A stretch of DNA of 64,000 nucleotides from an uncultured virus (IMG/VR IMGVR_UViG_3300047476_001538) (IMGVR_UViG_3300047476_001538:1-64000), one strand, 5' to 3'; numbered from the stretch's first letter, positions 3,517 to 56,015 are shown. Translations and numbers: made by a program. The notes: generated by a model not told the origin, from the sequence alone.

Positions 3517-3559
3517 TTAGTTTTCTATTATACTATCCACTTACATAGGAGCGAACAAA

Positions 3560-3850: not shown

Positions 3851-3929
3851 AACCCTAGATTCTTGATTGACATTGCTAGTCATTGAGTGTACCATACGAC
3901 TTTACTTAACCACAACCGGAGAAAATAAG

Positions 3930-9569: not shown

Positions 9570-9594
9570 GGAACTTTATGGGAGATTTATTGCT

Positions 9595-32636: not shown

Positions 32637-35291
32637 ATGTATGTAGATGCTTTTCTAGAAAAAGAAAAGAATACAGTCTACGTTGTTGAACGATCTACTC
32701 ACGGTAAAAGGATATACCGTGAGTATCCGGTAGAGTATGTATTCTATTACCCAAACCAATACGGGAATCATCAGAGTATTTTTGGTACTCCCGTATCAAA
32801 ATTTAAAACAAACAATCATAAAGAGTTCAGAAAAGAACTATCAGTCCATTCTGGTGCAAAATTATTTGAATCAGATATTAACCCGGTATTCCGATGTTTA
32901 GAGAATAATTATCTTGATGCTACACCACCCAAACTTAATGTAGTATTCTTTGACGTGGAAGTGGCGTTTGATCGTGACCGAGGCTATGCGCCAACCGATG
33001 ATCCATTTAATGAAGTAACGGCAATCACTGTTTATCTTGATTGGATGGATCAAATAATCACACTTGCCGTTCCACCAAAAAATCTTACGATAGATACTGC
33101 CACTGATTTAGTGAAGGACTTTAGCAACACCTATCTTTTTGATACAGAAAAACAAATGTTATCTGTATTTTTGGATATGTTGGACGATGCTGATATTATC
33201 ACTGGTTGGAACAGCGGTGGATTTGATATTCCATATCTCGTAAATAGAATCGCCAAAGTATTAACAAGAGACGACAATAGAAAATGGTGCTTATGGGATC
33301 AATCCCCAAAAAGAAGAGTGTATGAGCGATTTGGAAGTGAGATTTTAACTTATGATTTAGTTGGTAGAGTTCATATGGACTACTACGATCTATACCGTAA
33401 ATTCACTTATGAAGAGCGACATAGTTATTCATTGGATGCCATCGGTGAATACGAGTTGGGAGATCGTAAGGTGTCCTACGAGGGTTCACTTGACCAACTT
33501 TATCATCAAGACTTCAAAAAGTTTATTGATTATAATAGACAAGACGTTATGTTAGTATTCAAGCTGGACCAAAAGCTAAAGTTCATGGAACTGGCAAATA
33601 CGCTGGCTCATAAAAACACGGTACTACTACCGACTGCATTGGGTTCGGTTGCCATGATTGAGCAAGCGATTATCAACGAAGCTCATAAACAAGGAGTGGT
33701 AGTACCAGACAAGACAAGATCGGATGGAATAGACACTCAAGCAGCGGGTGCATATGTTGCGGTTCCTGTAAAGGGAATGCATGAATATATCGGTTCTATT
33801 GATATTAACTCACTATATCCTTCTACACTTCGTGCATTGAATATGGGTCAGGAAACTATTGTTGGTCAAATTAGACCAACGATGACCGATGAGCATATTG
33901 CTAATTTAATGAGGGAAGGCAAGAAGGGTGGAGAACTATGGGATGGGCTATTCGCTACATTAGAGTATACCGCTGTTATGGAAATGCGAGATACACCTCT
34001 GATTTTAGATTGGAACGATGGTAAATCAGAAGAATTATCTGCCAGATTAATTTGGAAGTTGATATTTGATAGTGATTTGCCGTGGGGATTATCAGCCAAT
34101 GGTACTATTTTTACATTCCAAAAAGAAGCAATTGTTCCAGGTCTTCTGAAAAAATGGTATTCTCAGAGAAAAGAATTTCAAGCTAAATTGAATAAACTGA
34201 TTGAGAAAGATGCACCAAAAGAAGAAATAGATTATTGGGATAGACAACAGCACTCTATCAAAATTTTCATTAATAGCCTCTACGGCGCAATTCTCAACCA
34301 GCATTGCAAGTTTTTTGATAAAAGAATAGGCCAATCTACCACATTAACAGGTAGATCAATATGTAAGCATATGGCGGCAAAGGTAAATGAACTAATATGC
34401 GAAGAATACAATCATGAAGGCAAGTCAATAATTTATGGTGATACTGACAGTTGTTATTTCTCAGCGTGGCCGATAGTAAGCAAAGACCAAAATGCAAAAT
34501 GGGACAAGGAAATAGCCATTCGTGTATATGATTCAATTGCAGATCAAGTTAATGAATCATTTCCGTCCTTTATGGAACAAGCATTTCATTGTCCACGATC
34601 TTTTGGGGAGATTATCAGGGGTGGTAGAGAAATTGTAGCAAGGCGTGGGATTTTCATAACCAAAAAGCGTTATGCAGTGATGTATTATGACAAGGATGGA
34701 CACCGATATGACAATGATGGCAAAGTAGGTAAACTAAAAGCGATGGGATTAGACTTAAAGCGATCCGATACCCCAAAATTCGTTCAAAAGTTTTTAGTAG
34801 AGATACTTGAAGACGTGCTAAATGGCGGTAACAAAGAAGACGTTATTGAGAAAATTCTTGCATTCAAACTTCAATTTATGGAATTACCATCATGGGAGAA
34901 AGGAACTCCAAAGAGAGTGAATAATCTTACCAAGTTCACTGTAATGTATGATAAAAACGCAAGGTCCAATCTTCCCGGTCACGTAAGGGCGGCAGTCAAT
35001 TGGAATATCTTGCGAGAAATTAACAAAGACAACAAGGTCATGAAAATAAATGATGGTCAAAAAACTATCGTATGCAAGCTAAGAAATAACGCTTTAAATT
35101 GGACATCTATTGCATATCCGATTGACGAACAACATCTACCAAAATGGTTTCTTGAATTGCCGTTTGATGATAATCTGATGATGACCACAATCGTAGATAA
35201 AAAGATTGACAATGTCATTGGAGTATTGGATTGGAATTTAAGAGAATCCACTGAACTAACAAACACTTTTCAAAGCCTATTTGACTTCTGA
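32637..35291 (+). CDS. Family B DNA polymerase (T4 gp43-like)
   Basis: Exo I FDVEV, Exo II GWNSxxFDIPY, Exo III YNRQD; DINSLYPS, KIFINSLYG, YGDTDS, KKRY. Confidence 0.97.
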   Translation: MYVDAFLEKEKNTVYVVERSTHGKRIYREYPVEYVFYYPNQYGNHQSIFGTPVSKFKTNNHKEFRKELSVHSGAKLFESDINPVFRCLENNYLDATPPKLNVVFFDVEVAFDRDRGYAPTDDPFNEVTAITVYLDWMDQIITLAVPPKNLTIDTATDLVKDFSNTYLFDTEKQMLSVFLDMLDDADIITGWNSGGFDIPYLVNRIAKVLTRDDNRKWCLWDQSPKRRVYERFGSEILTYDLVGRVHMDYYDLYRKFTYEERHSYSLDAIGEYELGDRKVSYEGSLDQLYHQDFKKFIDYNRQDVMLVFKLDQKLKFMELANTLAHKNTVLLPTALGSVAMIEQAIINEAHKQGVVVPDKTRSDGIDTQAAGAYVAVPVKGMHEYIGSIDINSLYPSTLRALNMGQETIVGQIRPTMTDEHIANLMREGKKGGELWDGLFATLEYTAVMEMRDTPLILDWNDGKSEELSARLIWKLIFDSDLPWGLSANGTIFTFQKEAIVPGLLKKWYSQRKEFQAKLNKLIEKDAPKEEIDYWDRQQHSIKIFINSLYGAILNQHCKFFDKRIGQSTTLTGRSICKHMAAKVNELICEEYNHEGKSIIYGDTDSCYFSAWPIVSKDQNAKWDKEIAIRVYDSIADQVNESFPSFMEQAFHCPRSFGEIIRGGREIVARRGIFITKKRYAVMYYDKDGHRYDNDGKVGKLKAMGLDLKRSDTPKFVQKFLVEILEDVLNGGNKEDVIEKILAFKLQFMELPSWEKGTPKRVNNLTKFTVMYDKNARSNLPGHVRAAVNWNILREINKDNKVMKINDGQKTIVCKLRNNALNWTSIAYPIDEQHLPKWFLELPFDDNLMMTTIVDKKIDNVIGVLDWNLRESTELTNTFQSLFDF

Positions 35292-36407: not shown

Positions 36408-36422
36408 TATAACAAGTATAAT

Positions 36423-36707
36423 ATGACAGAAAAAATATCTTCTCCAAACCACTATCAAGGATTAAATGACCTTGAAGTTATTGATGTTATTGATATATTC
36501 AATCTGAATTTTTCACGCGGGTGTGCTGTTAAATACGTTCTTAGAGCAGGACACAAGTTAGAAGAAGGATATACCAAGGAAGAAAAAGAAATAGAAGATT
36601 TAGAAAAAGCGATTTGGTATATTACGCACGAAGTAAATTTAATAAAGGAAAGGTCGTCCATTGCCGATACAGAAATTCTCACCATACCAACATCTCAGTC
36701 TAAATAG
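36423..36707 (+). CDS. DUF3310 family (T7 gp1.7-like) protein
   Basis: PNHY, E.ID.I, G.A.KY..RAGHK, EDLEKAIWY. Confidence 0.85.
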   Translation: MTEKISSPNHYQGLNDLEVIDVIDIFNLNFSRGCAVKYVLRAGHKLEEGYTKEEKEIEDLEKAIWYITHEVNLIKERSSIADTEILTIPTSQSK

Positions 36708-36733
36708 TTTCGGCATGTAACACAGGTAATTTA

Positions 36734-37558
36734 ATGAAAAATTCAAAAAATCACAAATATAATATTGCTATTCTTCTTCCAACAAGAGGAAGAACTGATG
36801 CTTTAAATCGTAGTATTGTTAGTCTGGTAAATCGGGCATTAGATAAAGATAAAATTCAATTACTATTGGCATTTGACAACGACGATAACATTGGATATGA
36901 TTACTTTGAGAAGGAAATTGTTCCTTATCTTGAATCCAAGGGCGTAGATTATGAAGCATTTGAGTTTGATTCATTGGGATACGAAGGATTGAATCAATAT
37001 TACAACTCTCTTGCGAAGAATGCTGACGCAGATTGGTTCTTCATTTGGAACGATGATGCCATCATGGAATCAACCGGATGGGATAGAACTATCGCCTCTC
37101 ATACTGGAAACTTCAAGCTACTAGCAGTTAGAACTCATCGCGATCATCCTTACAGTATTTTCCCAATTATTCCAACCGAGTGGCACGATGTAATGGGCTA
37201 TCTAAGTCGTCATCAGATGATTGATGCCGAGGTAAGCCATATTGCCTATATGCTGGATATATTTGAACGTATTCCCGTATATGTAACTCATGATCGGTTT
37301 GACTTGACTGGAAATAATTTGGATGAAACCGAAATAAACCGAGTCAGATTTGAGGGTAATCCTGATAACCCATTAGATTACTCTAATATTCATAACATTC
37401 ATGGAAGAGTAAAAGATGCTGAATTTTTATCAAAATATCTTCAGTCTAAAGACATGGATATGTCTTGGTGGGAAAATGTAAAAACAGGTAAACAAGATCC
37501 ATGGGAAAAATTAGCAGCTAATGATCCTAATGGCCAAACAGTGAGAACATCAAAATAA
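36734..37558 (+). CDS. GT-A fold glycosyltransferase (GT2-like)
   Basis: ILLPTRGR, DNDD, WNDD (DxD-like); CTAAATA late promoter at 36700. Confidence 0.85.
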   Translation: MKNSKNHKYNIAILLPTRGRTDALNRSIVSLVNRALDKDKIQLLLAFDNDDNIGYDYFEKEIVPYLESKGVDYEAFEFDSLGYEGLNQYYNSLAKNADADWFFIWNDDAIMESTGWDRTIASHTGNFKLLAVRTHRDHPYSIFPIIPTEWHDVMGYLSRHQMIDAEVSHIAYMLDIFERIPVYVTHDRFDLTGNNLDETEINRVRFEGNPDNPLDYSNIHNIHGRVKDAEFLSKYLQSKDMDMSWWENVKTGKQDPWEKLAANDPNGQTVRTSK

Positions 37559-38787
37559 TGAGTGATATAAACGTAAGTACAAAAATAGATAAGTGTATTA
37601 TTACCGGCGAATCGGTTGTTTCCGTTTTAGATTTGGGACAACACTCTTATGCGGATACATTTATCAATGAAGATCAATTGAATCTATCTGAGCCTGTGTT
37701 TCCGTTGCAAGTAAATTTATGCCCATCTTCTGGTCATTTACAACTCGCTTATGTAAGTCACGCCGAAGAGCGATACAATTTGTATAGCTATAGCTATACG
37801 TCAAGCAATTCTGCATTCTCGCGAAATCATTGGGATAACTATGCTCGCGAGGTTAAGAATAGGTTTAGCCCAACATCATTGGTAGTAGAAGTTGGTAGTA
37901 ACGATGGTTACTTGGTTGGCCAATTTTCTGATAGTTGCAAAAAAGTATTAGGCGTGGATATTTCAGGAACGATGTGTTCAATTGCCGAAGATCGTGGTGT
38001 ACCATCAGTTCAGGGTGCGTTTAATAGCAATTTAGGAAAAGAATTACAAGAACTTCATGGTTATGCTGATGTAGTTATTGCTAACAATGTATTAAATCAT
38101 GCCAATGATCCTGTGGATTTTTCAAAAGGAGCAGCTACCTTAATTGGAATCAACGGAACATTCGTTTTTGAAATGCCCTATTGGGTAAGTATGTTAGAAA
38201 GCGGTCGTTTTGTAGATCAGGTATATCATGAGCATATTAGCTATTTTACAATGAAAAGCATTGTAGCAATGTTAAGTAAGGCAGATTTGGTAGTATCTGA
38301 TGTCGAGGTTGTAGACTATCATGGTGGAAGTATTCGCGTATATGCGCGATATAAAACATCGGCAACTCAGTCTCCATTAGTGGATTCTTATATCAAGCAT
38401 GAAGAAGAAAGTGGATATTTTACCAGTGAGTTTTATGACGCACTTGTTAAAAAGTTTTCACAACAACGCTCAGAATGGTTAGCTAATTTTTACAGAATTA
38501 AAAATGAAAACCCAAATGCCATTATCATTGGAGTCGGTGCTGCCGCTAAGGCAATGACATGGCTGAATTATCATGGAATCAATAAAAATGATCTTTGTTA
38601 CATCACGGATTCCAGTGAATTTAAGCAAGGAAAATATACCGCGCTAAGTAGAATTCCTATAGTGTCCGACAATATATTCGCTGAATATCATGATCCCTAT
38701 GCGCTCGTATTGAGTTGGAACATTGGTGATCGGCTAAAAGAAATCTTACTTAGTATTAACCCAAATATCAAATTTATCTCACAATGA
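37558..38787 (+). CDS. NDP-sugar C-methyltransferase (TcaB9/NovU-like)
   Basis: LDLG, EVGSNDG, YHEHISYF, HGGSIR, GAAAKA, KQG, LSWN. Confidence 0.88.
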   Translation: MSDINVSTKIDKCIITGESVVSVLDLGQHSYADTFINEDQLNLSEPVFPLQVNLCPSSGHLQLAYVSHAEERYNLYSYSYTSSNSAFSRNHWDNYAREVKNRFSPTSLVVEVGSNDGYLVGQFSDSCKKVLGVDISGTMCSIAEDRGVPSVQGAFNSNLGKELQELHGYADVVIANNVLNHANDPVDFSKGAATLIGINGTFVFEMPYWVSMLESGRFVDQVYHEHISYFTMKSIVAMLSKADLVVSDVEVVDYHGGSIRVYARYKTSATQSPLVDSYIKHEEESGYFTSEFYDALVKKFSQQRSEWLANFYRIKNENPNAIIIGVGAAAKAMTWLNYHGINKNDLCYITDSSEFKQGKYTALSRIPIVSDNIFAEYHDPYALVLSWNIGDRLKEILLSINPNIKFISQ

Positions 38788-39194
38788 AACGAATCAATAT
38801 TTATAAACCCATTCCAGATTCTGGATTAGAAGTTCACAATGATGACCGAGGATGGATTGCTGATGTATTTTATGGCACCAGCATCAATCATGTTTGTATT
38901 CTAAAGAACAACCCTAACGCTGTTCGTGGCAATCATTATCATAAAAACACGGTTCAACACACGCTGTTGACCAAAGGAAAAATGCGCTACTGGTGGCAAG
39001 TATCTGATAAAAGCCAAGCCTCTAATTTTATTGACGTTGAGGTTGGTGATCTTATTACTAGTGAACCCAATGAGATTCATACTCTACAGTTTTTAGATGA
39101 AGACTCTGAGTGCGTTGTTTTTACAGAAGGACCTCGCGGTGGTGTAGATTACGAGTCTGACACATATAGAGTGGAGTCTATTATTTCAGAATGA
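38784..39194 (+). CDS. Cupin sugar epimerase/3,4-ketoisomerase (RmlC/WxcM-like)
   Basis: DDRG, RGNHYH, H in second cupin motif. Confidence 0.8.
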   Translation: MKRINIYKPIPDSGLEVHNDDRGWIADVFYGTSINHVCILKNNPNAVRGNHYHKNTVQHTLLTKGKMRYWWQVSDKSQASNFIDVEVGDLITSEPNEIHTLQFLDEDSECVVFTEGPRGGVDYESDTYRVESIISE

Positions 39195-39784
39195 AAGCTT
39201 TAGTATTTGGAGCCTCTGGTGGCATAGGCAATGCAACTGCTGGTCTTCTTAACGACAAGGATCATCAAGTAATCAGATTATCCAGTGTAAATGTTGATTT
39301 TACCGACATCGATAGCTGTGATGTTATATATTATTACTTGAAAAAGAACGACCCAGATGTTATAATCAATTGTGCCGGATATCTGACAGACAATTGTGAA
39401 TCCGGACATAATACGCTCTACATCAACGTAGAATCAAATTGGTCTATCATCAGATATTATATGGATAATCCGCCTATTAAGCCTGTTCATATTGTTTTAG
39501 TGGGCAGTAGTGCGTATAGAGAGGGGAAAAAGCAATACATGATGTATTCAGCGAGTAAAGCTGCCCTTCATAATTTATGGGAAGGTGCCGCTGACTACTT
39601 TAAAAACACCAATGTTACGATAAGCATCATTCATCCCGTGAGAACAAGGTCTAAGATGACAATCAATAGATTTTCACCAGATTTGGATTATTTTGAGCCA
39701 GAAGAAGTGGCAGAAAGAATACTATCAATGATTGATGATAATGAAAGTAAGTGTATTAAAATATCATTCGAGGAAAAACAATGA
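39191..39784 (+). CDS. SDR family oxidoreductase
   Basis: GASGGIG, NCAG, YSASK. Confidence 0.85.
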   Translation: MKALVFGASGGIGNATAGLLNDKDHQVIRLSSVNVDFTDIDSCDVIYYYLKKNDPDVIINCAGYLTDNCESGHNTLYINVESNWSIIRYYMDNPPIKPVHIVLVGSSAYREGKKQYMMYSASKAALHNLWEGAADYFKNTNVTISIIHPVRTRSKMTINRFSPDLDYFEPEEVAERILSMIDDNESKCIKISFEEKQ

Positions 39785-40551
39785 AAAAATTAGGACTATT
39801 GGGTAAGGGAACCGTCGGTTCCGCAGTATATGAGGGACTGAAATCAATCGGACATAATATGTCATATTATGATCCATCCCATCCAGAAACAAAATTTGAA
39901 GACATTCTTGATACTGAGTGTGTATTTATTTGTGTACCAACCGATCAAGCCGACAACGGTGAGTGCGATGTATCCATCGTGAACTCGGTGGTTGCTCAAC
40001 TTAACGAAGTTGGCTACAAAGGACTTGTTGCTATCAAGAGCACGGTTGTTCCGGGAACTTCGGCAAGGTTACAAGAAGAATATCCTTCTTTGCGAATGGC
40101 ATCAGTTCCGGAATTTTTAAGAGCAAAAACAGCATTGGCCGATTTTGTATACAACCATGATGTGTTGGTCATCGGGACATTCAATGAATCAGATGCTAAT
40201 TTGGTTGAAGAAATTCACGGAAGTTTGCCAAAATCAGTGAGCAAGATTTCTCCCACGGAAGCAGAGATCATTAAGTATTTTAACAACGTACATCATTCTG
40301 TATCTATTATCTTCGCAAATATTGCATACGAAGTCTGCAAGCGGCTTGGTGTAAATTACAGCAATGTTTATGAAACTATTATCAAGCGAGAATGCTTCAA
40401 TCCTGCCTATCTGAAGTGTAACGACAATATGCGTGGATTTGGCGGTCATTGTTTGCCCAAGGATACCAGCGCATGGAATAATCTGATTAAAAATCTTGGT
40501 CTTGAATTTGAATTGATTCAAGCTGCTCTTAACGATAATAAGAGGGTATAA
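39781..40551 (+). CDS. UDP-glucose/GDP-mannose dehydrogenase family (C-terminally short)
   Basis: GKGTVG, ICVPT, IKSTVVPGT, PEFL, GFGGHCLPKD. Confidence 0.88.
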   Translation: MKKLGLLGKGTVGSAVYEGLKSIGHNMSYYDPSHPETKFEDILDTECVFICVPTDQADNGECDVSIVNSVVAQLNEVGYKGLVAIKSTVVPGTSARLQEEYPSLRMASVPEFLRAKTALADFVYNHDVLVIGTFNESDANLVEEIHGSLPKSVSKISPTEAEIIKYFNNVHHSVSIIFANIAYEVCKRLGVNYSNVYETIIKRECFNPAYLKCNDNMRGFGGHCLPKDTSAWNNLIKNLGLEFELIQAALNDNKRV

Positions 40552-41456
40552 TGGCAAAAATTCTTGTAACAGGAGCCAGTGGTCTGCTTGGAACAGAGAT
40601 ATGCAAGCAGCTGAAAGATTCAACTAATCATATTGTTACTGCACTTGATAATCATTCTCGTTCTGATTCTATTCCCCCATGTGATCAATGGGTAAGAGCA
40701 GATTTGAGAAATAAGGATACATTAGATCATCTTGGGTTTGATTGGGATTATATCTATCATTACTCTGCTATCAATGGCACCACCAACTTCTACGAACGCC
40801 CAAATGAGGTGTTGACCAATAACTTTATTAGCGATGTATCAGTTTTTGAGTTTGCATCCAAGTGTAAAAATCTAAAAAAGATTATTTACGCAAGCACCAG
40901 TGAAATGGTTAGCGACGAGCCGCTATGTCCAACCCCAGAACTCAGTGATATCACTATAAAAGATATTCATAATGCTCGTTGGAGTTATCGTATCGCTAAA
41001 TTAGCCAGTGAAAACTACTTAGCCAATAGCAAATTACCTTATGTCACTATTCGTTATTTTAATATCTATGGTCCCGGTAGCAAGGCTGGTCATTTTGTTG
41101 CAGACCAGATTGCCAAGATTAAGCGAGGAATCTTTGAAATTGTCGGTGGCGATGAGTCTCGCAGTTTTTGCTATATTGAGGACGCTATTCAAGCAACTAT
41201 CTATTGTGGCGAACATGTCGGCGGCACCGTCATCAATGTTGGCAACGATCAGGAAACGAATATCGGAGAGGCGTGTAAAATTATTGGAACGCTCATGGGT
41301 TATGAAAATGCGCAATGGACCACCATTCCAGGCAGAGATGGCAGCACCAAGCGGCGTTTACCTGATATTAACCGATTACGATCTATTATGCCTTCATATT
41401 CTCCGAGAACCTTTACAGAAGGGATGATTGATATTGTAAGAGAATTGTCACTTTAA
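40551..41456 (+). CDS. NAD-dependent epimerase/decarboxylase (UDP-glucuronate decarboxylase-like)
   Basis: TGASGLLG, ASTSE, RWSYxxAK, RYFNIYGP, RSFCYIED. Confidence 0.85.
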   Translation: MAKILVTGASGLLGTEICKQLKDSTNHIVTALDNHSRSDSIPPCDQWVRADLRNKDTLDHLGFDWDYIYHYSAINGTTNFYERPNEVLTNNFISDVSVFEFASKCKNLKKIIYASTSEMVSDEPLCPTPELSDITIKDIHNARWSYRIAKLASENYLANSKLPYVTIRYFNIYGPGSKAGHFVADQIAKIKRGIFEIVGGDESRSFCYIEDAIQATIYCGEHVGGTVINVGNDQETNIGEACKIIGTLMGYENAQWTTIPGRDGSTKRRLPDINRLRSIMPSYSPRTFTEGMIDIVRELSL

Positions 41457-41459
41457 TCA

Positions 41460-41500
41460 TTGACGAGGTTGAGTGTTTCTGATATAGTTAGACACTCAAC
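41460..41500 (+). promoter_or_regulatory. Sigma70-type promoter with -10 enclosed in an inverted repeat
   Basis: TTGACG-N17-TATAGT; GTTGAGTGT/ACACTCAAC. Confidence 0.65.
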
Positions 41501-41517
41501 ACTATGAGATAACCAGT

Positions 41518-42030
41518 ATGAAAAATGTGTTAATTGATTGGAAAACTATTGAGAATTATACACTTGAAATTGCTCGACAGATTTCAAGTAGTCGTTGGCA
41601 ACCTGACTATGTCGTAGGCGTAACACGTGGTGGATTGATGTCTGCCACGTTGTTGAGCGACTGGTTTAATTGCCCAATGCACACGTTGGAAGTTCATTTT
41701 AAAAGAGGCGAACCCGACGGATGCGAATCCGTGTTGTGGATGGCAGAAGATGCTTTTGGTGAACACGGAGATAAGAAAAACATTCTGGTTATTGATGATA
41801 TAAACAAGGCAGGGAATGTCATCAATTGGATAATAAATGATTGGCAAGATTCTTGCCATCCAACTGATCCTCGCTGGGAAGATGTATGGGGGAATAATGT
41901 ACGATTCTCGGCATTAGTTGACAAGCCTTGCGGAAAAATTCTACATCACGTAGATTATAGCGCAACGTCAATGGACCTTGACGACGAATGTTGGATACAT
42001 ATGCCTTGGCAAAATTGGTGGATGAGGTAA
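41518..42030 (+). CDS. Type I phosphoribosyltransferase (Gpt-like)
   Basis: VGVTRGG, ILVIDDI, WIxMPW. Confidence 0.85.
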   Translation: MKNVLIDWKTIENYTLEIARQISSSRWQPDYVVGVTRGGLMSATLLSDWFNCPMHTLEVHFKRGEPDGCESVLWMAEDAFGEHGDKKNILVIDDINKAGNVINWIINDWQDSCHPTDPRWEDVWGNNVRFSALVDKPCGKILHHVDYSATSMDLDDECWIHMPWQNWWMR

Positions 42031-42035
42031 TTATT

Positions 42036-42461
42036 ATGAGAGCAGGAGATTTTCACAACATGGTTGGTCAACGAAGATACGTCACTCGCCCTAATCGCGA
42101 GTGGGAGTGTTTTAAATCGGCCAACAGTCATTTACACAGAAGCAGGGATGCCTCACTGACAGCAGGATTAACATTCTGCACGTCTGGTTATACTTCTGGT
42201 GGACAACAACCCCTTTATCATACTCCGGTATACGAACTTGGGGTGATAGATAAGTCTACGAATCGGGCTATTCGTTGGTTGCATCCTGATTTTAAAGAGG
42301 ATTTCATCAAGGAATGCGAGAGTAAAGGAATTGATTGGACAAATGCAATTGATGATCTATCATTTGTTACTATTGACGATTATGATGAATCTCGTTCAAA
42401 AGTAAGAGAATTGATATCGGAATTTTACAAATCCCACCCAGGATATGACATATACGATTAG
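42036..42461 (+). CDS. Hypothetical protein (paralog of 52648-53121)
   Basis: Shared AIRWxxPxxKxxFxxECxxKxID. Confidence 0.75.
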   Translation: MRAGDFHNMVGQRRYVTRPNREWECFKSANSHLHRSRDASLTAGLTFCTSGYTSGGQQPLYHTPVYELGVIDKSTNRAIRWLHPDFKEDFIKECESKGIDWTNAIDDLSFVTIDDYDESRSKVRELISEFYKSHPGYDIYD

Positions 42462-42494
42462 GTCTAATTAGATTATCAACAGGGAAATTATTTT

Positions 42495-43604
42495 ATGTAT
42501 TTTTTTACAAGTGAAAGCGTAAGCGAAGGTCATCCGGATAAGGTGGCCGATGCTATTAGTGATGCTATCTTAGATTTGGCATTATCAGTAAAAACAACTG
42601 AAGCAAAACAAGCTACAAGAGTGGCTTGCGAAACCATGGTCACAACCAATAGAGTTATTGTGGCCGGTGAATACAAGGGTGTATTAAATGACACCGATGT
42701 AGAGGCTACCATTAAACAGGTGGTCAAAGATATAGGATATGAACAAGATGGATTTAATTGGAAGACTTTAAAGATTAGTAATTATCTTCATGGTCAAAGT
42801 GCTGATATTGCCTTGGGAACAGATAATCTTGGTGCCGGTGATCAGGGAATTATGTTTGGTTTCGCAAACGATGATACCGAAGAGTATATGCCAGCAGCAA
42901 TTTATTACAGTCACAAGATAGTAAAGCGATTGGCCGAGATTAGAAAAGCAGGTGAGTCTATGCTTGGACCCGATGCAAAGTCTCAGGTCACTATAGAATA
43001 CACTGTTGACAATCGCGTTGATAACATACCAAAAATTGTATGTTCAACCCAACATTCTTCAGATAGCGAAATTAAGCAAGTCAAAGAATTGGTGCTGAAT
43101 ACTATTCATGAAGTTATTCCTAGCCATTTACTCACTAATAACACCGAGTATCTAATCAACCCTACTGGAAGATTTGTAATTGGTGGACCAGATGGAGATT
43201 GTGGTCTTACTGGCAGGAAGATTATCGTTGACACTTATGGTGGATATTCACCACATGGCGGTGGTGCATTCTCTGGCAAGGATCCATCCAAGGTTGATAG
43301 GTCGGCGGCATATATGTCTCGCTATCTTGCTAAAAACATTGTCAGCCATTATGGTGGTAGATCAGCAACCGTTCAGCTATCTTATGCCATTGGCGTAAAA
43401 GAACCTACTTCAATCTTTGTTATGTTGGATGGTAAAGTGAGAGAAGACATTGCATCAAGAATTAAATGTTTGGTAGATTTAACGCCGAAGGGTATCATTG
43501 ACAGGTTTGATCTATTCAGGCCGATTTACAGAAAAACAACCAACTATGGACATTTTGGCAAATCCGACAATGATCTGGCTTGGGAAAACATCAATCTATT
43601 TTAA
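42495..43604 (+). CDS. metK: S-adenosylmethionine synthetase
   Basis: FTSESVSEGHPDK, GAGDQG, GLTGRKIIVDTYGG, GGGAFSGKD. Confidence 0.97.
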   Translation: MYFFTSESVSEGHPDKVADAISDAILDLALSVKTTEAKQATRVACETMVTTNRVIVAGEYKGVLNDTDVEATIKQVVKDIGYEQDGFNWKTLKISNYLHGQSADIALGTDNLGAGDQGIMFGFANDDTEEYMPAAIYYSHKIVKRLAEIRKAGESMLGPDAKSQVTIEYTVDNRVDNIPKIVCSTQHSSDSEIKQVKELVLNTIHEVIPSHLLTNNTEYLINPTGRFVIGGPDGDCGLTGRKIIVDTYGGYSPHGGGAFSGKDPSKVDRSAAYMSRYLAKNIVSHYGGRSATVQLSYAIGVKEPTSIFVMLDGKVREDIASRIKCLVDLTPKGIIDRFDLFRPIYRKTTNYGHFGKSDNDLAWENINLF

Positions 43605-43613
43605 TTAAGTAAA

Positions 43614-43988
43614 ATGAAATGGTTCAGTAATCTTTTCAAAAGAAAGAAAAAACAAGTTAAGAAAAAAGAAGCGTTAAGCGAGATAGAGGTAGCCACTCAA
43701 CGAGGCGAACCTTATGTTGCTATTTTAAGCATGGACATTGATCCAAATAACCCACACGAAGGTTCGTTTGAATTAGAATGGAATGATAAATTTCTCACGA
43801 CCTTGATTCGTCATGGATATCAAAAATCGGAGAATGACACGGATGCTGATATTGTGGATCGGTGGTTTGTTACTTTGTGTAGGCATGTAGTATTAGAGAC
43901 ATTTGAACAATATGAGGCTATGTTGCCTGATGTTCACCGAGTAATTAAACAAAAAAATATTGGGGACGGATTTTCAGAAGCCTCTTGA
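43614..43988 (+). CDS. Conserved hypothetical phage protein
   Basis: GEPYV, G.FELEWNDKF, IVDRWF. Confidence 0.8.
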   Translation: MKWFSNLFKRKKKQVKKKEALSEIEVATQRGEPYVAILSMDIDPNNPHEGSFELEWNDKFLTTLIRHGYQKSENDTDADIVDRWFVTLCRHVVLETFEQYEAMLPDVHRVIKQKNIGDGFSEAS

Positions 43989-44025
43989 CTCATTGACGAC
44001 GATATGATATAATAATCATATCGTC
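43985..44025 (+). promoter_or_regulatory. Sigma70-type promoter with -10 enclosed in an inverted repeat
   Basis: TTGACT-N17-TATAAT; GACGATATGAT/ATCATATCGTC. Confidence 0.7.
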
Positions 44026-44039: not shown

Positions 44040-45053
44040 ATGCGTTTTTTGTTAGTGGATTTGGCCAATACTTTTTTCAGAAGTAGGCATGCTGCGTTTA
44101 GATCATCATCTATTGATGAAAAAATTGGTATGGCTCTTCATATCACCATATCATCGGTCAATTCATTGGCCAAAAAATTTGATCCAGATCATGTCGTTTT
44201 CGCTCTCGAAGGAAGATCATGGAGAAAGGATTTTTATGAACCTTATAAAAGAAATAGGCAAGTTGCCAGAAATGCTCTCACAACGAAAGAACAAGAAGAA
44301 GAGCAATTATTTTGGGAAATTTACGAAGAACTTGTAAATTATCTTACCACAAAAACAAATTGTAGTGTAATCCGATGTCCTACAGCAGAAGGTGACGATG
44401 TTATTGCCCGATGGATTGCCATGCATCCAAATGATCATCATACTATAATCAGTTCAGATTCGGACTTCGCCCAATTATTATCTGAGAATGTAAATCAATA
44501 TAATGGTATTGCCGATGAATTGATTACCCTTGATGGCATCACAACCATTGATGGCAAACCAATTCTTGATAAGAAAACCAAGGAACCAAAAGCAGCACCG
44601 AATCCAGAATGGTTATTGTTTGAGAAAATCATTCGCGGAGATACATCTGACAATATCTTTTCTGCTTATCCTGGCGTAAGAACAAATGGCTCTAAGAACA
44701 AAGTTGGACTGAGAGAAGCATTTGATGATAGGCATAAAAAAGGATGGGCATGGAATAACCTACAATTGCAACGATGGACTGATCATAATGGCGATGAGCA
44801 CAAAGTGCTTGATGATTACAATAGAAATAAAATCCTCATAGACTTGACATGCCAACCAGAAGATGTTAAACTTCAAATAGACACATCCATCAGAGAAGGC
44901 ATTACTGAGGAATCTGTATCACAAGTAGGGGTAAAATTCCTTAAATTCTGTGGCAAACATTCTTTAATAAAGCTCGGTGATCAGGCGGAATCGGTAGGAA
45001 GATGGATGTCTAAAGTATATTGCGGAGAAGTAAAAAATGACAGTGATTGCTAA
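44040..45053 (+). CDS. rnh: RNase H / 5'-3' exonuclease (T4 rnh, FEN family)
   Basis: SWRK..Y..YK.NR, EGDDVI, SSDSDF.QL, GDTSDNI. Confidence 0.9.
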   Translation: MRFLLVDLANTFFRSRHAAFRSSSIDEKIGMALHITISSVNSLAKKFDPDHVVFALEGRSWRKDFYEPYKRNRQVARNALTTKEQEEEQLFWEIYEELVNYLTTKTNCSVIRCPTAEGDDVIARWIAMHPNDHHTIISSDSDFAQLLSENVNQYNGIADELITLDGITTIDGKPILDKKTKEPKAAPNPEWLLFEKIIRGDTSDNIFSAYPGVRTNGSKNKVGLREAFDDRHKKGWAWNNLQLQRWTDHNGDEHKVLDDYNRNKILIDLTCQPEDVKLQIDTSIREGITEESVSQVGVKFLKFCGKHSLIKLGDQAESVGRWMSKVYCGEVKNDSDC

Positions 45054-48009: not shown

Positions 48010-48468
48010 ATGAAAATTTTTGAAATAATATTGGATCAAGTGAGCAACACTGCTCTATTTGAGATGGCTTTTGAAAGAAAAAATGCCATCAATGCTGTAA
48101 GAGGCAAAGCAAAGCCTATAGTAGATCATTTAATTTACTTATTGATTTACAAAAACTCAAAAGCAAGAAATCACTGGAAAAGTGAGTTATCAGCATTTAT
48201 TGATAGCATTGATTATTTGTATTTGAAACCTAGCAAAAGAAAACTGTCAGGAAATGATTATTATAATCTTTTGTTTGAAGAACCGTTGGGCGGAGATATA
48301 ATTCAAACTGAAAAACTAATAAATCAGGCTATTAGAAAAGAAGGCAATCCTGATATAAAAGTAAACCCATATATACTCAAGGAATCCCTTGAAAAAATCA
48401 TACATAAATTAAGTTTTGATTTAGCAAACGATCAATACATATCTATAGATGATTATGAGAATTTTTGA
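48010..48468 (+). CDS. DUF29-like protein, paralog 1
   Basis: MKIFEIILDQVSNTALFE leader; HL..L..Y......HW..E. Confidence 0.7.
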   Translation: MKIFEIILDQVSNTALFEMAFERKNAINAVRGKAKPIVDHLIYLLIYKNSKARNHWKSELSAFIDSIDYLYLKPSKRKLSGNDYYNLLFEEPLGGDIIQTEKLINQAIRKEGNPDIKVNPYILKESLEKIIHKLSFDLANDQYISIDDYENF

Positions 48469-48931
48469 AATAATATTGGATCAAGTGAGCAACACTGCTC
48501 TATTTGAGATGGCATTCAAAAAACGAGAGGTCAGAGACAAGTTTGTCAATCAAAGCTATCAAATCGCAGAACATTTAGTGAAAATCTTAGCATATGATGA
48601 TCCGCAAAATTACAATCATTGGTGCGCCGAGATCAACGCTTTCCTAAAACCTCTTTGGGCTCTTCGTTGGGATGGTAAAAAATTACTGAGTAAAGAAGAG
48701 ATAATGAAATGCTTGTGGAAAAGTTTTTTAGAAAACGGAGAATACGATATTCAAGGAATAATCAAGAGTCTTGATATGATTGATGGTTATGCTGCCCCAA
48801 GAAATATTCGCACCACTTCGCAAATAAACTCTACCTTGATAAACATATACACCAAGTTAAGTGACTTATTATCACGAGGCAAAAGAACGCCAATTCAAAC
48901 TATACTACAAGAATTAGGCGTGAATTTATGA
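48455..48931 (+). CDS. DUF29-like protein, paralog 2
   Basis: Leader DNA nearly identical to paralog 1; HLVKI...NHWCAEI. Confidence 0.7.
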   Translation: MRIFEIILDQVSNTALFEMAFKKREVRDKFVNQSYQIAEHLVKILAYDDPQNYNHWCAEINAFLKPLWALRWDGKKLLSKEEIMKCLWKSFLENGEYDIQGIIKSLDMIDGYAAPRNIRTTSQINSTLINIYTKLSDLLSRGKRTPIQTILQELGVNL

Positions 48932-49413
48932 GAATTTCCGAAGTTATCCTTGACAAATTAAACGAAACTGCTCTATTTGAGATGGCTTTTGATAGGAAAG
49001 AAGCCATAAAAAAGTTTCAGAATCTTGACTACCAGATTCAAAGACATCTTATTAAAATAACAGCGTTCAAAGATGGGTTAAATTACCAACATCATTGTGG
49101 AGAAATCAACGGTTGGTTAGATCATCTAAATGATGTAAAATGGAACAGAACTCAATATCTTAGCAAATATATCATCATGAAATGCTTATGGGAGGGTCCA
49201 TTGGGTCATGGTGCTATTGCTGTTGAAGATGGCGTGAAAACTCTGATCAGAGTACATCGGTACAGTGTGCCGCGAAACGACTTATCCATTCACAGAATAT
49301 ATGAACTGCTATTCAAAATTTACGATGAAATGTCATTTGATTTGAGTAATGGAAACGTAAACAACATTCAGCATTACTTGACAAAAAACGGCTATTACGT
49401 ACAGAATCCCTGA
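48928..49413 (+). CDS. DUF29-like protein, paralog 3
   Basis: MRISEVILDKLNETALFE leader; HLIKI...HHCGEI. Confidence 0.7.
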   Translation: MRISEVILDKLNETALFEMAFDRKEAIKKFQNLDYQIQRHLIKITAFKDGLNYQHHCGEINGWLDHLNDVKWNRTQYLSKYIIMKCLWEGPLGHGAIAVEDGVKTLIRVHRYSVPRNDLSIHRIYELLFKIYDEMSFDLSNGNVNNIQHYLTKNGYYVQNP

Positions 49414-50145: not shown

Positions 50146-51027
50146 ATGGGATCTTACACTAAGTTGTTGGCTAAACACATCAATCCGCCCCACTGGCTCG
50201 AAGACAATGTGATGTTCGAGGGCCTAACTGGTTCAGTTGCTTATGCTGTATCTAATGATATGTCAGATATGGATATTGTCGGATTTTGTATTCCGCCTAA
50301 AGAAATTGTATTCCCTCATTTAGGCGGAGAGATACCAGGGTTCGGTACACCTAAACCACGCTTTGATGACTTTCAAAAGCATCACATCAAACACGATCAA
50401 CGTGAATATGATATTACCATTTACTCAATTGTAAAGTTTTTTCAATTGGTAATGGAGAACAATCCTAATATGGTTGATGCTTTGTTCTTACCAAGGCGTT
50501 GTGTATTACACAGTACTCAGATTTATGAACATGTTCGGGATCACAGGAGTATGTTCTTGCACAAAGGATCATGGTACAAATTTAGAGGCTATGCTTACAG
50601 CCAATTAAGTAAGATTAGAACTAAAAGCAACGCTTCTAATCCCAAGCGACAGGCTTCTATCGAAAAGTACGGCTACGATGTTAAATTTGCTTATCACATC
50701 GTTAGGTTGATGCTAGAAGTCGAACAAATTTTAGCTGAACACGATCTTGACCTACAACGTAACTCTGATATTCTAAAAACTATTAGAAACGGAGAATGGA
50801 CTTTTGAAAATATTGAATCTTGGTTTGATAACAAAGAAAAGTCACTTGAGATGTTGTATGCTAATTCAACATTGCCCGCTAGACCAAATGAATCTAAAAT
50901 TAAATCACTGCTAATGGAGTGTTTAGAGATGCATTATGGATCACTTGAGACCGTTATTCAAGTGTCTCCGCAAATGTCAAATTTAGTTGATGAATTAAAA
51001 CGATTAACAGAGAAATATAATAGGTAG
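50146..51027 (+). CDS. RlaP-like nucleotidyltransferase (RNA repair Pol-beta family)
   Basis: GSVAYA...SDMD, NNPNM, GYAYSQ, YDVKFAYHIVRL. Confidence 0.85.
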   Translation: MGSYTKLLAKHINPPHWLEDNVMFEGLTGSVAYAVSNDMSDMDIVGFCIPPKEIVFPHLGGEIPGFGTPKPRFDDFQKHHIKHDQREYDITIYSIVKFFQLVMENNPNMVDALFLPRRCVLHSTQIYEHVRDHRSMFLHKGSWYKFRGYAYSQLSKIRTKSNASNPKRQASIEKYGYDVKFAYHIVRLMLEVEQILAEHDLDLQRNSDILKTIRNGEWTFENIESWFDNKEKSLEMLYANSTLPARPNESKIKSLLMECLEMHYGSLETVIQVSPQMSNLVDELKRLTEKYNR

Positions 51028-53125: not shown

Positions 53126-53821
53126 ATGAATTTTTCCTTCGCATTCGATGTTGACGGCACTTTGACGTTAAGTCGTCAAAAAATTGATTCGGATTTTGCA
53201 GAGTGGTTTCTCAATTGGGTCAAGAAGCATAAGGTATACATTGTTACTGGCAGTGATTATGAAAAAACTGTAGAACAATTGGGACAAGAGATATGTGATT
53301 CGGTGGCTGGTATCTTCAATTGTTCTGGTAATGCTTTTTATATAAAGGGCGAATTACAATCATCCAATGAATTTAAGCTAAACGACAGCCAAATGGAGAT
53401 ATTAAATCGTTATTTGTCTAAGAGTCCATTTCCTCTGAGAACCGGAAATCACTTTGAACAACGACAAGGAATGTGTAATTTTAGCGTGGTTGGAAGAAAT
53501 GCCACCATAGAAGAGCGGCAACAATATTCTGATTATGATGGTCGGGTTGCGGAACGTCAGCGTATTGTTACTCAATTTAAGCATTGTTTTCCTGAGTTGG
53601 ACGCAGTTCTTGGTGGTGATATTAGTATTGATATTTTTCCGAAGGGCAATGATAAGAGTCAAGTTGCTGAAAAATTGAAGCCATTTGTTTATTTTGGTGA
53701 TCGTGTATTTCCGGGTGGAAATGATTACACTATTGCTAAGGAAGCAGAGGCTCATTATAACGTGAAAGATTGGCAAGAAACTCGGAGGATTATAGAATTG
53801 TATTACAATGAGAGCATATGA
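53126..53821 (+). other. HAD-IIB phosphomannomutase-like
   Basis: FDVDGTLT, VTGSD, NFSVVGR, GG.ISIDIFPKG.DK, FGD...GGND. Confidence 0.88.
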
Positions 53822-54341: not shown

Positions 54342-54349
54342 ATACAGTA

Positions 54350-54988: not shown

Positions 54989-55078
54989 TTGCCGATTGCA
55001 TTAACAGTAAACAATCTATTTTCTCAATTTTCACCCACTGTCATAATATTGTAACACTAATAGTGTTAAATAGTTCTT

Positions 55079-55876: not shown

Positions 55877-56015
55877 CGATAATGATCGTCCGGCACATAT
55901 GACGATTGAATTTCCAAGCTTGGCAGCGTGTCAAGCATCAGCAAACACAATTCAATATGAATTGAATTTCAAAATATACAAAGTGGAACACAAGTGTCAA
56001 GAAAAAAACTCTTAA
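55836..56015 (+). CDS. 59-aa two-Cys protein (absent from ORF track; resembles 59273-59464)
   Basis: MKWILLLT...F.SLAACQ...C. Confidence 0.55.
   Translation: MKWILLLTAINTFNDNDRPAHMTIEFPSLAACQASANTIQYELNFKIYKVEHKCQEKNS

Follow-up and report, generated by a model that had tools for sequence, protein, structure and literature searches.

The window analysed here comprises the first 64 kb (64,000 nucleotides) of a 75,771-bp contig of an uncultured virus in IMG/VR (IMGVR_UViG_3300047476_001538), which carries a completeness rating of about 21%. Within this window, six open reading frames (ORFs) occupy positions 36734-41456 of the + strand, and every junction between them overlaps by 1 or 4 nt, in agreement with a preliminary description that had presented them as six coupled genes. 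We propose, with a probability of about 0.6, that these genes constitute a single operon whose products synthesise an activated branched-chain sugar and transfer it. The operon encodes the following proteins, where NDP stands for nucleoside diphosphate and SDR for short-chain dehydrogenase/reductase:

36734-37558, + strand: GT-A glycosyltransferase (phrog_14945, structure model)
37558-38787, + strand: NDP-sugar C-methyltransferase of the TylC3/TcaB9/MtmC type (PF08421 and PF08484, PDB matches)
38784-39194, + strand: FdtA/CapF-like cupin, 136 aa (structure model matches)
39191-39784, + strand: short classical SDR, 197 aa, presumed keto-sugar reductase (Pfam)
39781-40551, + strand: NDP-sugar 6-dehydrogenase, 256 aa (PF03721 and PF00984)
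40551-41456, + strand: ArnA/UXS-like extended SDR, presumed NDP-uronate 4-oxidase/decarboxylase (PF01370, motif alignment)

Two scans of IMG/VR yielded 59 non-duplicate related loci (designated by L numbers); contig ends truncate many of the incomplete ones, and the 59 include some near-copies of a single phage. All six genes were found in the same order in 38 of the 59 loci. Additionally, the catalytic motifs of the methyltransferase, the cupin, both SDRs and the dehydrogenase are invariant in 33-38 distinct orthologs each. Judged from these comparisons, the grouping appears to be real and beyond chance, and the chemistry proposed in the preliminary description, in which a C-methylated, reduced pentose is formed and then transferred by the glycosyltransferase (GT), appears to be the best-supported reading; both the module swaps of the relatives and the conserved catalytic motifs back it.

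The module swaps concern three parts of the operon. In four loci (L008, L009, L010 and L012), the dehydrogenase and the extended SDR are replaced in the same slot by a guanosine diphosphate (GDP)-mannose 4,6-dehydratase, recognised by TIGR01472 in L008 (1.1e-107, 360 bits) and L012 (2.9e-116, 388 bits), under the cut-off of 415 bits, and assigned in L009 and L010 by 78-79% identity to the enzyme of L008. Since such a dehydratase delivers an NDP-4-keto sugar, the dehydrogenase and SDR pair that it replaces most likely does the same. A WbuC-type cupin accompanies the dehydratase in 4 of 4 loci and the dehydrogenase in 0 of 54; this extra cupin would be needed only for a sugar with a C5 stereocentre, and its absence therefore fits a pentose. 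In L053 and L054, the methyltransferase and cupin give way to the alpha and beta subunits of a thiamine pyrophosphate-dependent E1 enzyme (PF00676, 1.3e-55; PF02779 and PF02780), while L055 comprises the GT, dehydrogenase and SDR only. Four versions of the operon are thus represented, with a methyl-branched pentose, a methyl-branched 6-deoxyhexose, a two-carbon-branched pentose and a plain pentose as predicted products, and with one conserved GT that is orthologous across the module-swapped loci (49-72% identity). Because the relatives keep the GT yet exchange the modules, the clade probably makes a palette of sugars; such variation would be expected of a decoration of the surface or of DNA that is subject to an arms race. 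As a separate observation, the gene between QueD and the GT in L053 (L053:2528-4477) encodes a B12-binding radical-SAM protein of 649 aa, which may be another sugar-tailoring, perhaps C-methylating, enzyme.

These natural exchanges support a route from an NDP-hexose through a uronate and a 4-keto-pentose to a C-methyl pentose. The truncated 6-dehydrogenase would first oxidise a host NDP-hexose to the uronic acid, with the family and the catalytic Cys assigned by homology; uridine diphosphate (UDP)-glucose is the most likely substrate, since the relatives of the extended SDR are UDP-uronate enzymes. The ArnA/UXS-like SDR, its motifs recognised by homology, would then oxidise C4 and decarboxylate the product to an NDP-4-keto-pentose. 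Next, the TylC3/TcaB9-type enzyme would place a methyl group from S-adenosylmethionine (SAM) on a carbon adjacent to the keto group, and the FdtA/CapF-like cupin would move or invert a centre adjacent to the keto group, the two steps being conceivable in either order. The short SDR would reduce the keto group, and the soluble GT-A enzyme would finally transfer the C-methyl pentose to an acceptor produced during infection of the cell. MetK, together with an AhcY encoded further along the contig, may top up the SAM cycle as an optional contribution. The description of this set as a complete pathway does not hold: neither the contig nor four relatives yielded a nucleotidyltransferase, the dehydrogenase is truncated, and a phosphomannomutase (PMM) of the window, tried as a conserved pathway component, was rejected because it occurs in 1 of 5 records searched, namely the window's own.

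The first product of the operon matches phrog_14945, annotated as a glycosyltransferase. Its score in Pfam does not place it in PF00535 (no family at E<=0.01), and a sequence search of the PDB gave no match; more distant members of the family match PF00535, for example P0286 (8.5e-15). The AlphaFold model (predicted local distance difference test, pLDDT, 95.4; predicted template modelling score, pTM, 0.93) adopts a GT-A fold. Foldseek returned 371 PDB matches at E<=0.001, headed by TarP (2.9e-10) and followed by RmlT, TarS and heparosan/chondroitin synthases, and in BFVD the nearest viral matches outside phages were the GT2 of Mimivirus LCMiAC01 (1.3e-15) and then those of CeV and CroV. Residues R20, D48, D107, D108, D164 and D197 are invariant in 53 sequences and D50/D51 are at least 90% conserved, which gives the fold an acidic motif of the DxD type. 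The protein has an isoelectric point (pI) of 5.11, a net charge of -13.6 and no transmembrane segment, and the pI ranges from 4.68 to 5.90 over 46 orthologs. On the strength of the model, it is a soluble, acidic GT-A (GT2-like) glycosyltransferase of phages; the fold, phrog_14945 and the PF00535 matches of its family relatives bear out the earlier GT-A assignment. Metagenomes contain 2732 relatives, none of them named. Furthermore, two tandem GTs are present in 11 of the 38 full loci, and some loci carry a fusion of the GT with an FkbM methyltransferase. The sole relative in a cultured phage (26% identity) belongs to Pelagibacter phage HTVC008M (L014; NC_020484.1, 125017-132312), where the block also includes a methyltransferase, a Nol-like carbamoyltransferase, an NAD synthetase and a UDP-glucose dehydrogenase; from its gene content, this block looks like another phage glycan-tailoring cluster.

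The three-part architecture of the C-methyltransferase is complete, with PF08421 (7.1e-12), Methyltransf_23/11/12/25 and PF08484 (9.6e-29) all over their cut-offs, and the best solved relatives are 4rv9 (3.2e-51) and the TcaB9 entries (about 1e-37), with 5t6b and 3ndi at about 1e-38 to 1e-40. Its catalytic stretch yhEH aligns with ydEH of 5t6b and yhEH of 4rv9; Y222, E224 and H225 of TcaB9 are what we take to be the catalytic Tyr-x-Glu-His residues. Both Y223-H224-E225-H226 and the ExGSNDG motif (E111-x-G-S-N-D) are invariant in 33 of 33 distinct orthologs. The zinc site departs from the four-Cys pattern: alignment to 5t6b leaves only C13 and C55, their partner cysteines being replaced by T16 and S58, exactly one Cys per CxxC pair as had been noticed before. 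Among the 33 distinct orthologs, C13 is retained in 30 and C55 in 7, positions 16 and 58 are always Ser or Thr, and the second site is mostly Asn, which indicates that the zinc site is degenerate clade-wide.

For the cupin, Pfam matches are weak (PF14667 with 27.4 bits against a cut-off of 28.7; Cupin_2 below cut-off), and the assignment comes from the structure model (pLDDT 90.5). Foldseek placed FdtA first (2pak; 3.2e-07, TM 0.72, root-mean-square deviation 2.6, 136 columns), followed by QdtA, FdtD and CapF. In VIA, HCAN_0198 (Z 13.6) and FdtD (Z 13.4) scored highest, and the epimerases WbcA, StrM, CapF and a Campylobacter 3-epimerase (Z 12.1-12.7) lay within about 1.5 Z of the ketoisomerases; the ESM Atlas pointed, as a lead only, to the PF14667/FdtA neighbourhood. 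Residues D20, R22, N50-H51-Y52-H53, E97 and H99 are invariant in 33 orthologs, so that the paired histidines (H51-Y-H53) are in place, and PDB titles of FdtA name H49N and H51N mutants. The cupin is consequently a candidate NDP-4-keto-sugar 3,4-ketoisomerase or epimerase, the two classes that supply its best model matches and that had been suggested for it. The short SDR matches adh_short (1.3e-14), Epimerase (1.6e-09) and the N-terminal part of RmlD_sub_bind, and S106, Y119 and K123 are invariant in 37 orthologs; with these domains and intact catalytic residues, the earlier SDR assignment stands.

The dehydrogenase contains the NAD-binding and central domains of its family (PF03721, 1.5e-14; PF00984, 4.3e-18) and lacks the C-terminal nucleotide-sugar-binding domain (PF03720), having 256 aa against about 390-450 aa for the full length. 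TIGR03026 covers it at model positions 68-295 of 413 (1.6e-40, 139 bits, cut-off 189.8), and the alignment to the best PDB match, the UDP-glucose dehydrogenase (UGDH) 3vtf (6.8e-27), stops at residue 314 of 444; the GDP-mannose dehydrogenase 1mfz is second (8.8e-22). Among the 120 best relatives, 117 have 256-260 aa and 3 are shorter fragments (about 190 and 192 aa), both domains are present in 119, and PF03720 occurs in none, so the short length is not an accident of assembly; these relatives sit on contigs of up to 317 kb. The GGHCLPKD motif with the catalytic Cys is invariant in 36 of 36 orthologs. Judged from these alignments, the protein is a conserved two-domain form without the nucleotide-sugar domain. 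Its earlier naming as a UDP-glucose dehydrogenase is thus upheld for the first two domains and for the motif around the catalytic Cys, and falls short for the UDP-binding C-terminal domain, which is missing.

The extended SDR belongs to PF01370 (6.6e-38). Its PDB matches are 6zl6 (2.7e-21), UXS1 (1.5e-16), UDP-apiose/xylose synthase (3.2e-12) and ArnA (3.9e-07), with GDP-mannose 3,5-epimerase (about 1e-11) and GDP-fucose synthase (about 1e-6) among the lower ones, and the ESM Atlas returned generic epimerase/dehydratase clusters that do not discriminate. In BLASTP against E. coli ArnA (24% identity, 4e-13), T116-S117-E118 of the ASTSE motif aligns with T432-S433-E434, and RWSYRIAK (Y146/K150) with R460-W461-I462-Y463...K467, which corroborates the motifs that had been likened to ArnA and the UDP-xylose and UDP-apiose synthases. 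The alignment ends at ArnA residue 581; R619, which we take to be the carboxylate-handling Arg of ArnA, lies beyond this end. GxxGxxG, Thr-Ser-Glu and YxxxK are all present, and S-(S/T)-S-E (with Ser or Thr at 116) and RWSYRxxK are invariant in 38 orthologs. Moreover, the dehydrogenase and this SDR co-occur in 54 of 54 loci, the single SDR-only locus being cut inside the dehydrogenase, and the two genes overlap by 4 nt in the loci inspected (untallied). Decarboxylation by the SDR is therefore a prediction from this obligate pairing and from the exchange of the pair for a 4,6-dehydratase. The whole 75.8-kb contig has only two Epimerase-family genes and hence no separate 4,6-dehydratase, which extends to the contig what had been stated for the window.

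Several points weigh against the proposed route. Every enzyme activity in it is predicted, by homology only. A sugar methylated at C3 cannot later be isomerised or epimerised at C3, and the cupin would therefore have to act first, or the methyl group be attached to another carbon, such as one adjoining a 3-keto group. GDP-sugars are implied by the dehydratase variant, yet the extended SDR resembles UDP-uronate enzymes, so that the shared methyltransferase, cupin and GT would need to accept both nucleotides. The domain missing from the dehydrogenase binds the nucleotide in all characterised members of the family, and the truncated enzyme may depart from the usual mode of NDP-sugar use; a predicted complex in which the ArnA-like SDR might replace the missing domain scored 0.00, which is evidence neither way. 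Finally, the SDR scores far below the equivalog cut-offs for U4kpxs and ArnA (NF008872, 48.4 bits, 6.8e-13, against 294; NF005998, 27.2 against 777), and its best solved match, 6zl6, is presumably a UDP-glucuronate 4-epimerase and no decarboxylase.

The dehydratase version of the cluster also exists in cells. A scan with the methyltransferase profile over one genome per prokaryotic species retained 80 loci. One of them (L068), a 39-kb contig labelled as a Haliscomenobacter metagenome-assembled genome, shows the full phage arrangement of QueD, GT, operon, QueE and FEN-like gene and is probably of phage origin and mis-binned as bacterial; it was set aside as phage-like, which left 79 cellular loci. 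Methyltransferase, cupin and dehydratase occur together in 49 of the 79, and 12 of these 49 contain the full set of WbuC, methyltransferase, cupin, short SDR and dehydratase in the phage order, including Polynucleobacter (L067), Pelagibacter (L110), an acI actinobacterium (L120) and alphaproteobacterial single-cell genomes. Partial sets were seen in many DPANN archaea, and the short SDR accompanies the methyltransferase in 14 of the 79. In Polynucleobacter L067, where the methyltransferase is 56% and the dehydratase 80% identical, the cassette is surrounded by GT2, GT10, DegT, PMT_2, nucleotidyltransferase and TylF genes, which places it in a surface-glycan cluster in this one locus examined. 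This methyltransferase is the nearest cellular homolog of the phage enzyme, no more than a lead to the host. The 79 cellular loci hold no ortholog of the truncated dehydrogenase (one 21% match to an ordinary UGDH) and no ArnA-like SDR ortholog at >=40% identity, and a GT ortholog is found in 0 of the 79; the GT and the genes of the pentose version were seen on phage contigs only. In the methyltransferase tree, the dehydratase-type rows can group, and L008 is not resolved from the dehydrogenase type (split support 57/88). The simplest history would be that phages acquired a cellular GDP-6-deoxy-C-methyl-hexose cassette and that one phage lineage then rebuilt the front end into the pentose version. 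All the enzyme families are known ones, and the dehydratase version is a cassette common in cells; what is new is the phage setting, the pentose front end with its shortened dehydrogenase, the diversification by modules and the orphan GT.

Two other chemistries were considered, and we regard each of them as unlikely. In the first, the dehydrogenase would be a GDP-mannose 6-dehydrogenase and the SDR a GDP-mannuronate decarboxylase, with a GDP-C-methyl-pentose as the product. It would agree with the GDP-mannose 4,6-dehydratase as the exchangeable module of relatives and cells, with the L008 methyltransferase, which the tree leaves unseparated from the dehydrogenase-type ones (open fork, split support 57/88), with 1mfz as second-best solved match of the dehydrogenase and with the PMM encoded in the window. 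However, the best dehydrogenase matches are UDP-glucose dehydrogenases, the SDR has UDP-sugar enzymes (UXS1, UDP-apiose/xylose synthase and ArnA) as its solved relatives and GDP enzymes only at about 1e-11 and 1e-6, the PMM is not conserved with the cluster, and we know of no described GDP-mannuronate decarboxylase activity.

The second, to which we give equally little credence, would have the SDR act as a uronate 4-epimerase or as the final reductase, so that a second transfer would use a uronic acid sugar made by the pair, and the methyltransferase would work on a 4-keto-6-deoxyhexose of the host. The presumed epimerase identity of 6zl6 and the two GTs in 11 of the 38 full loci would suit this scheme, as would L055, which has no reductase and in which the dehydrogenase and SDR alone must yield a transferable sugar; bifunctional UDP-4-keto-pentose/UDP-xylose synthases (NCBIfam NF008872) exist, however, and could explain L055. 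The SDR further differs from 6zl6 in having S-T-S-E instead of T-S-S, with the Glu invariant in 38 orthologs, and in an ArnA-like insert with RWSY. Since the pair is exchanged for a 4,6-dehydratase and the contig has no other source of a 4-keto sugar, it is best regarded as the supplier of the keto sugar, in line with the C-methyl pentose route.

The genes and elements around the operon, including a second sugar-related group further downstream, are as follows:

32637-35291, upstream of the operon: DNA polymerase
36700-36706, + strand: CTAAATA element, overlapping the stop codon of the upstream ORF
41518-42030, + strand: phosphoribosyltransferase, PRTase (PF00156, 4.7e-09; PRK09177 xanthine PRT, 34 bits, cut-off 138)
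41988-42461, + strand: 157-aa ORF without a Pfam, NCBIfam or PHROG match
42495-43604, + strand: MetK, S-adenosylmethionine synthetase (TIGR01034, 434.8 bits vs 309.4; PF00438, PF02772, PF02773)
44040-45053, downstream of the operon: 5'-3' exonuclease, FEN-like
53126-53821, + strand: eukaryotic-type PMM, HAD-IIB (PF03332, 4e-34)
55079-55876: LpxH-like metallophosphoesterase (weak match to NF003743; TAAATA upstream)
55994-57028, + strand: GT4 (GT-B) glycosyltransferase with a basic pI of 8.66, unrelated to the GT of the operon (PF00534, 7.1e-24; PF13439)

As to the acceptor, a glycoconjugate is ranked first, although somewhat below even odds: the sugar may be attached to virion proteins of the phage or to another protein or glycan. 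Glycosylation of virions and proteins occurs in giant viruses and mycobacteriophages. The acidic GT (pI 5.11), its matches to GT2 enzymes of giant viruses, the tandem GTs and the GT-FkbM fusions favour an acceptor other than DNA, as does the cellular cassette that lies within a surface-glycan cluster in L067. Three observations speak against ranking a non-DNA acceptor first: the operon is placed between the DNA polymerase and the FEN-like nuclease, it sits between QueD and QueE in 30 of the 38 full loci, and proven DNA-modifying phage GT-A enzymes share TarP as their top PDB match, as described in the part of the source available (bioRxiv 10.1101/2023.12.21.572611).

Hypermodification of DNA is the next candidate, possible but rather doubtful. 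Here, the GT would put the branched pentose on a base of the phage DNA, and the new glycosylated base would shield the genome from host nucleases. The operon lies within a block of replication and nucleotide metabolism (from the DNA polymerase to the exonuclease), the TarP likeness extends to phage GT-A enzymes that glycosylate 5-hydroxymethylcytosine, and the glycans reported for phage DNA include uronic acids, Kdo and heptose made with adjoining sugar-activation genes, so far as the preprint could be consulted (bioRxiv 10.1101/2023.12.21.572611). In addition, the type of sugar differs among close relatives, a KdsA gene occupies the slot of the operon in some of them, and genes for 7-deazaguanine (FolE, QueD and QueE) frame the cluster, with FolE (PF01227, 8.9e-39), a HIT protein and QueD directly upstream of the operon in L055 (L055:7479-13153) and a similar framing in L008, L009, L005, L006 and most loci. 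The preliminary description had asked whether relatives carry other DNA-modification genes in this slot; such genes are indeed present, but they stand around the cluster and not instead of it.

The known cases of DNA glycosylation, according to the available parts of two sources, all need a hydroxylated base supplied by a ThyA homolog or a 5-methylpyrimidine dioxygenase (PMC13326640; bioRxiv 10.1101/2023.12.21.572611). No such partner emerged from the records searched: PF00303 (the ThyA family) occurred in 0 of 6, two of which carry completeness ratings of 100% and 89%, with the contig itself representing only about 21% of its genome; PF00145 (C5-methylase) in 0 of 5; and PF01702 (TGT/DpdA) in 0 of 6, that is, the contig and five relatives. 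The suggestion to look for a base hydroxymethylase elsewhere in the genome therefore led to no ThyA-family, C5-methylase or TGT gene in the five relatives. PF12851 (Tet_JBP) was silent in five records and in controls alike. The single recognisable 2-oxoglutarate-Fe(II) oxygenase of the contig had no match in five relatives in a search made without a positive control. The net charge of the GT (-13.6) likewise argues against DNA as its substrate.

Remodelling of the host envelope appears improbable: the sugar would be added to O-antigen, capsule or S-layer precursors of the host to block superinfection or mask receptors, as might be read from the surface-glycan genes next to the cellular cassette in L067, from TarP, TarS and RmlT, the best solved GT matches, which decorate cell-wall polymers, and from the GT4, LpxH-like phosphoesterase and PMM of the window, but the GT has neither a membrane segment nor an ortholog in the 79 cellular loci, and a slow envelope turnover would presumably be of little gain to a lytic jumbo phage. 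The small remainder falls to other acceptors.

A further variant, which we consider a long shot, would place the branched pentose on a 7-deazaguanine derivative in phage DNA, a base made without ThyA or TET chemistry. The PRTase would turn the 7-carboxy-7-deazaguanine base into a nucleotide, the polymerase would incorporate it and the GT-A enzyme would glycosylate it. This role of the PRTase is proposed because FolE-HIT-QueD and PRTase-QueE frame the operon, yet there is no QueC (PF06508, 0 of 5 records) and no TGT/DpdA (0/5), even in the record rated complete. In the biosynthesis of tubercidin and toyocamycin, a PRTase turns a deazapurine base into a nucleotide, and the set of FolE, QueD, QueE and PRTase resembles that pathway. 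If true, this reading would mean that DNA hypermodification has a further, new class, a deazapurine glycosylated with a C-methyl sugar, and that there is a transglycosylase-independent route of deazaguanine into DNA.

Branched sugars of the TylC3 type are known in antibiotic pathways and a few bacterial surface glycans. A close parallel is C-3 methylation by TylC3, TcaB9, MtmC and EryBIII (mycarose, kijanose), which shares with the operon the three-domain methyltransferase family, the Y-x-E-H stretch and an accompanying cupin and reductase. These systems use dTDP-2,6-dideoxy or 6-deoxy hexoses in antibiotic clusters of actinomycetes, whereas the operon is carried by a phage, probably makes a pentose through its dehydrogenase and decarboxylase, and has a degenerate zinc site in the methyltransferase. 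The Ugd enzyme with the C-terminal domain of ArnA, UXS, UDP-apiose/xylose synthase or U4kpxs follows the same two-step logic, with the SDR motifs T-S-E, RW-Y-xxx-K and FN-x-x-GP; the phage dehydrogenase differs in its C-terminal truncation, and the keto-pentose is predicted to be C-methylated and not aminated or reduced to xylose. For virenose of the Coxiella lipopolysaccharide, an in-silico GDP route has been outlined that combines GDP-mannose 4,6-dehydratase, a TylC3-type methylase and an epimerase/reductase (PMC3539893, available in part). As far as that source goes, its logic is that of the dehydratase cassette found in 4 phage loci and 49 of the 79 cellular loci; the window, in contrast, swaps the dehydratase for dehydrogenase and decarboxylase, has no WbuC, and uses a small cupin and a short SDR and not a GMER-type enzyme.

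The E1 pairs AviB1/AviB2 and Pau11/Pau12 attach two-carbon branches to 4-keto sugars, and the available part of the source names this as one of two mechanisms known for such branches (PMC4425429). The likeness, seen in relatives and not in the window, is to the E1 alpha/beta genes in the methyltransferase and cupin slot of L053 and L054; for avilamycin and paulomycin, addition of the branch is believed to follow the glycosyl transfer step. Phage DNA hypermodification, such as glucosyl-hydroxymethylcytosine of T4, the GT-A and GT-B enzymes linked to 5mYOX or ThyS, and arabinosyl-5-hydroxycytosine of RB69 and DLP3, resembles the operon in a TarP-matching GT-A, neighbouring sugar-activation genes, glycan diversity and a position in DNA metabolism, to the extent that the sources were available. 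The operon differs in its strongly acidic GT and in the records searched, in which no ThyA homolog or C5-methylase was found, and the available parts of the literature on phage DNA glycosylation report no branched sugar on DNA. Glycans on capsids and tail tubes of mycobacteriophage virions are on record, as stated in the part of the source available (PMC12619734). The systems of this kind resemble the operon in a soluble virus-encoded GT-A with nucleotide-sugar tailoring and in the GT2 matches to Mimivirus-like viruses, CeV and CroV. In giant viruses and chloroviruses, virus-encoded sugar pathways supply the glycans of capsids or fibrils. The phage operon differs from them in lying outside the structural gene block and in being known here from its genes alone.

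In the literature searched, we found no paper on a phage-encoded branched-sugar pathway with a methylase of the TylC3 kind. The operon family may be a natural source of enzymes for making activated sugars that are rare, among them a C-methyl pentose that is possibly new, and of a sugar dehydrogenase reduced to two domains; it may also serve as a test case for the exchange of modules that supply 4-keto sugars. It also provides a concrete target for distinguishing virion from DNA decoration by exotic glycans in aquatic jumbo phages, and either outcome would bear on arms races and the escape from defence.

The CTAAATA element at 36700 had been read as a late promoter. The exact word is not enriched (7 found, 13 expected), nor is the T4-type late promoter word TATAAATA (3 matches, 6.3 expected). 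In 17 of 30 distinct upstream regions of orthologs, however, the TAAATA core is placed 12-45 nt ahead of the GT start, as compared with 1.5% of random windows, and it precedes 9 of the 94 + strand ORFs of the window, including that of a 1960-aa ART-PolyVal polyvalent protein. It resembles what we take to be the T4 late -10 box, TATAAATA. Because its position upstream of the GT is shared among orthologs, a phage-specific, T4-late-like promoter is plausible; what stands of the earlier claim is the word itself and its positionally conserved core, whereas the 7-mer is not enriched and "late" is an analogy only.

The operon is hosted by a clade of widespread freshwater jumbo phages. The best identity of the DNA polymerase is 47.6%, to the jumbo phage Sinorhizobium Phosso, with Agrobacterium Atu_ph07 and 350-kb phages of Yersinia, Salmonella and Escherichia as other relatives, and megablast against 50,697 phage records found no close relative of the region. 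The stretch recurs in freshwater and lake metagenomes of several studies, with at least half of the sampled words present in 10 runs, 3 of which are possibly the source of the contig. Positions 36421-44000 are covered by a 19,678-nt contig from an independent run, with 240 differences and 2 gaps. One metatranscriptome library contains six contigs of 151-202 nt identical to the operon, two of them crossing gene junctions, although carry-over of DNA is possible. Stretches of the operon that these contigs leave uncovered say nothing about transcription, because absence cannot be read from contigs. In the near-identical loci L002 and L003, the DNA polymerase gene (L002:2423-7731, L003:273-2627) matches the 884-aa protein of the window in pieces (residues 1-531, 521-548, 548-605 and 521-884) between inserts; the pattern suggests inteins, introns or homing elements, which are missing from the window copy.

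Among the neighbouring genes, the identities given earlier to the PRTase (PF00156), MetK (TIGR01034) and PMM (PF03332) were all confirmed. The PRTase, present in 26 of the 38 full-cluster loci and usually followed by QueE, is adjacent to the operon, and its link to the sugar pathway is putative. The 157-aa ORF was found only in L002 and L003. MetK accompanies just 9 of the 38 full clusters and is therefore an optional helper; the proposal that it supplies SAM is right in that the enzyme is a bona fide MetK, but it cannot be a general feature of the pathway. Past the window, the contig continues with a QueF-II-like preQ1 synthase (L013:9094-9465; TIGR03139, 82.8 bits, cut-off 86.9) and, directly after it, AhcY (L013:9469-10758; TIGR00936, 618 bits), the two genes lying at about 72,093-73,757 of the contig. 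MetK and AhcY would cover two steps of the SAM cycle, and AhcY fits this theme by its predicted function. The second sugar-related group (53126-57028) consists of the PMM, two ORFs without assignment, the LpxH-like phosphoesterase and the GT4.

Other parts of the contig were also annotated. At 77-6734, seven paralogous ORFs of about 100-148 aa share the N-terminus MIEYTVKV.DNG.R.WYLNGK.HREDGPA and represent a tandem family of short-repeat proteins. The 1960-aa polyvalent protein (16126-22008) carries an ADP-ribosyltransferase domain (PF18760, 3.5e-39; ART-PolyVal) with additional weak metallopeptidase and nucleotidyltransferase matches. An RNA-repair set is spread over 9454-10485, 13697-14716 and 50146-51027 and includes a T4 Rnl1-like RNA ligase (PF09511), a second RNA ligase with a PHA02142 OB domain (PF09414 and PF21189) and an RlaP nucleotidyltransferase (PF10127). 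Beyond the window, an IS200/IS605-type TnpB (NF040570, 302 bits) is encoded at L013:2736-4489 (contig about 65,735-67,488), followed by a small Fic/DOC-domain protein. Two paralogous DUF4116-repeat proteins of 549-559 aa (23072-24751 and 57257-58906) both have GATAAATA upstream, and three tandem paralogs of about 155 aa, with the sequence MKIFEIILDQVSNTALFEMAF..., are located at 48010-49413.

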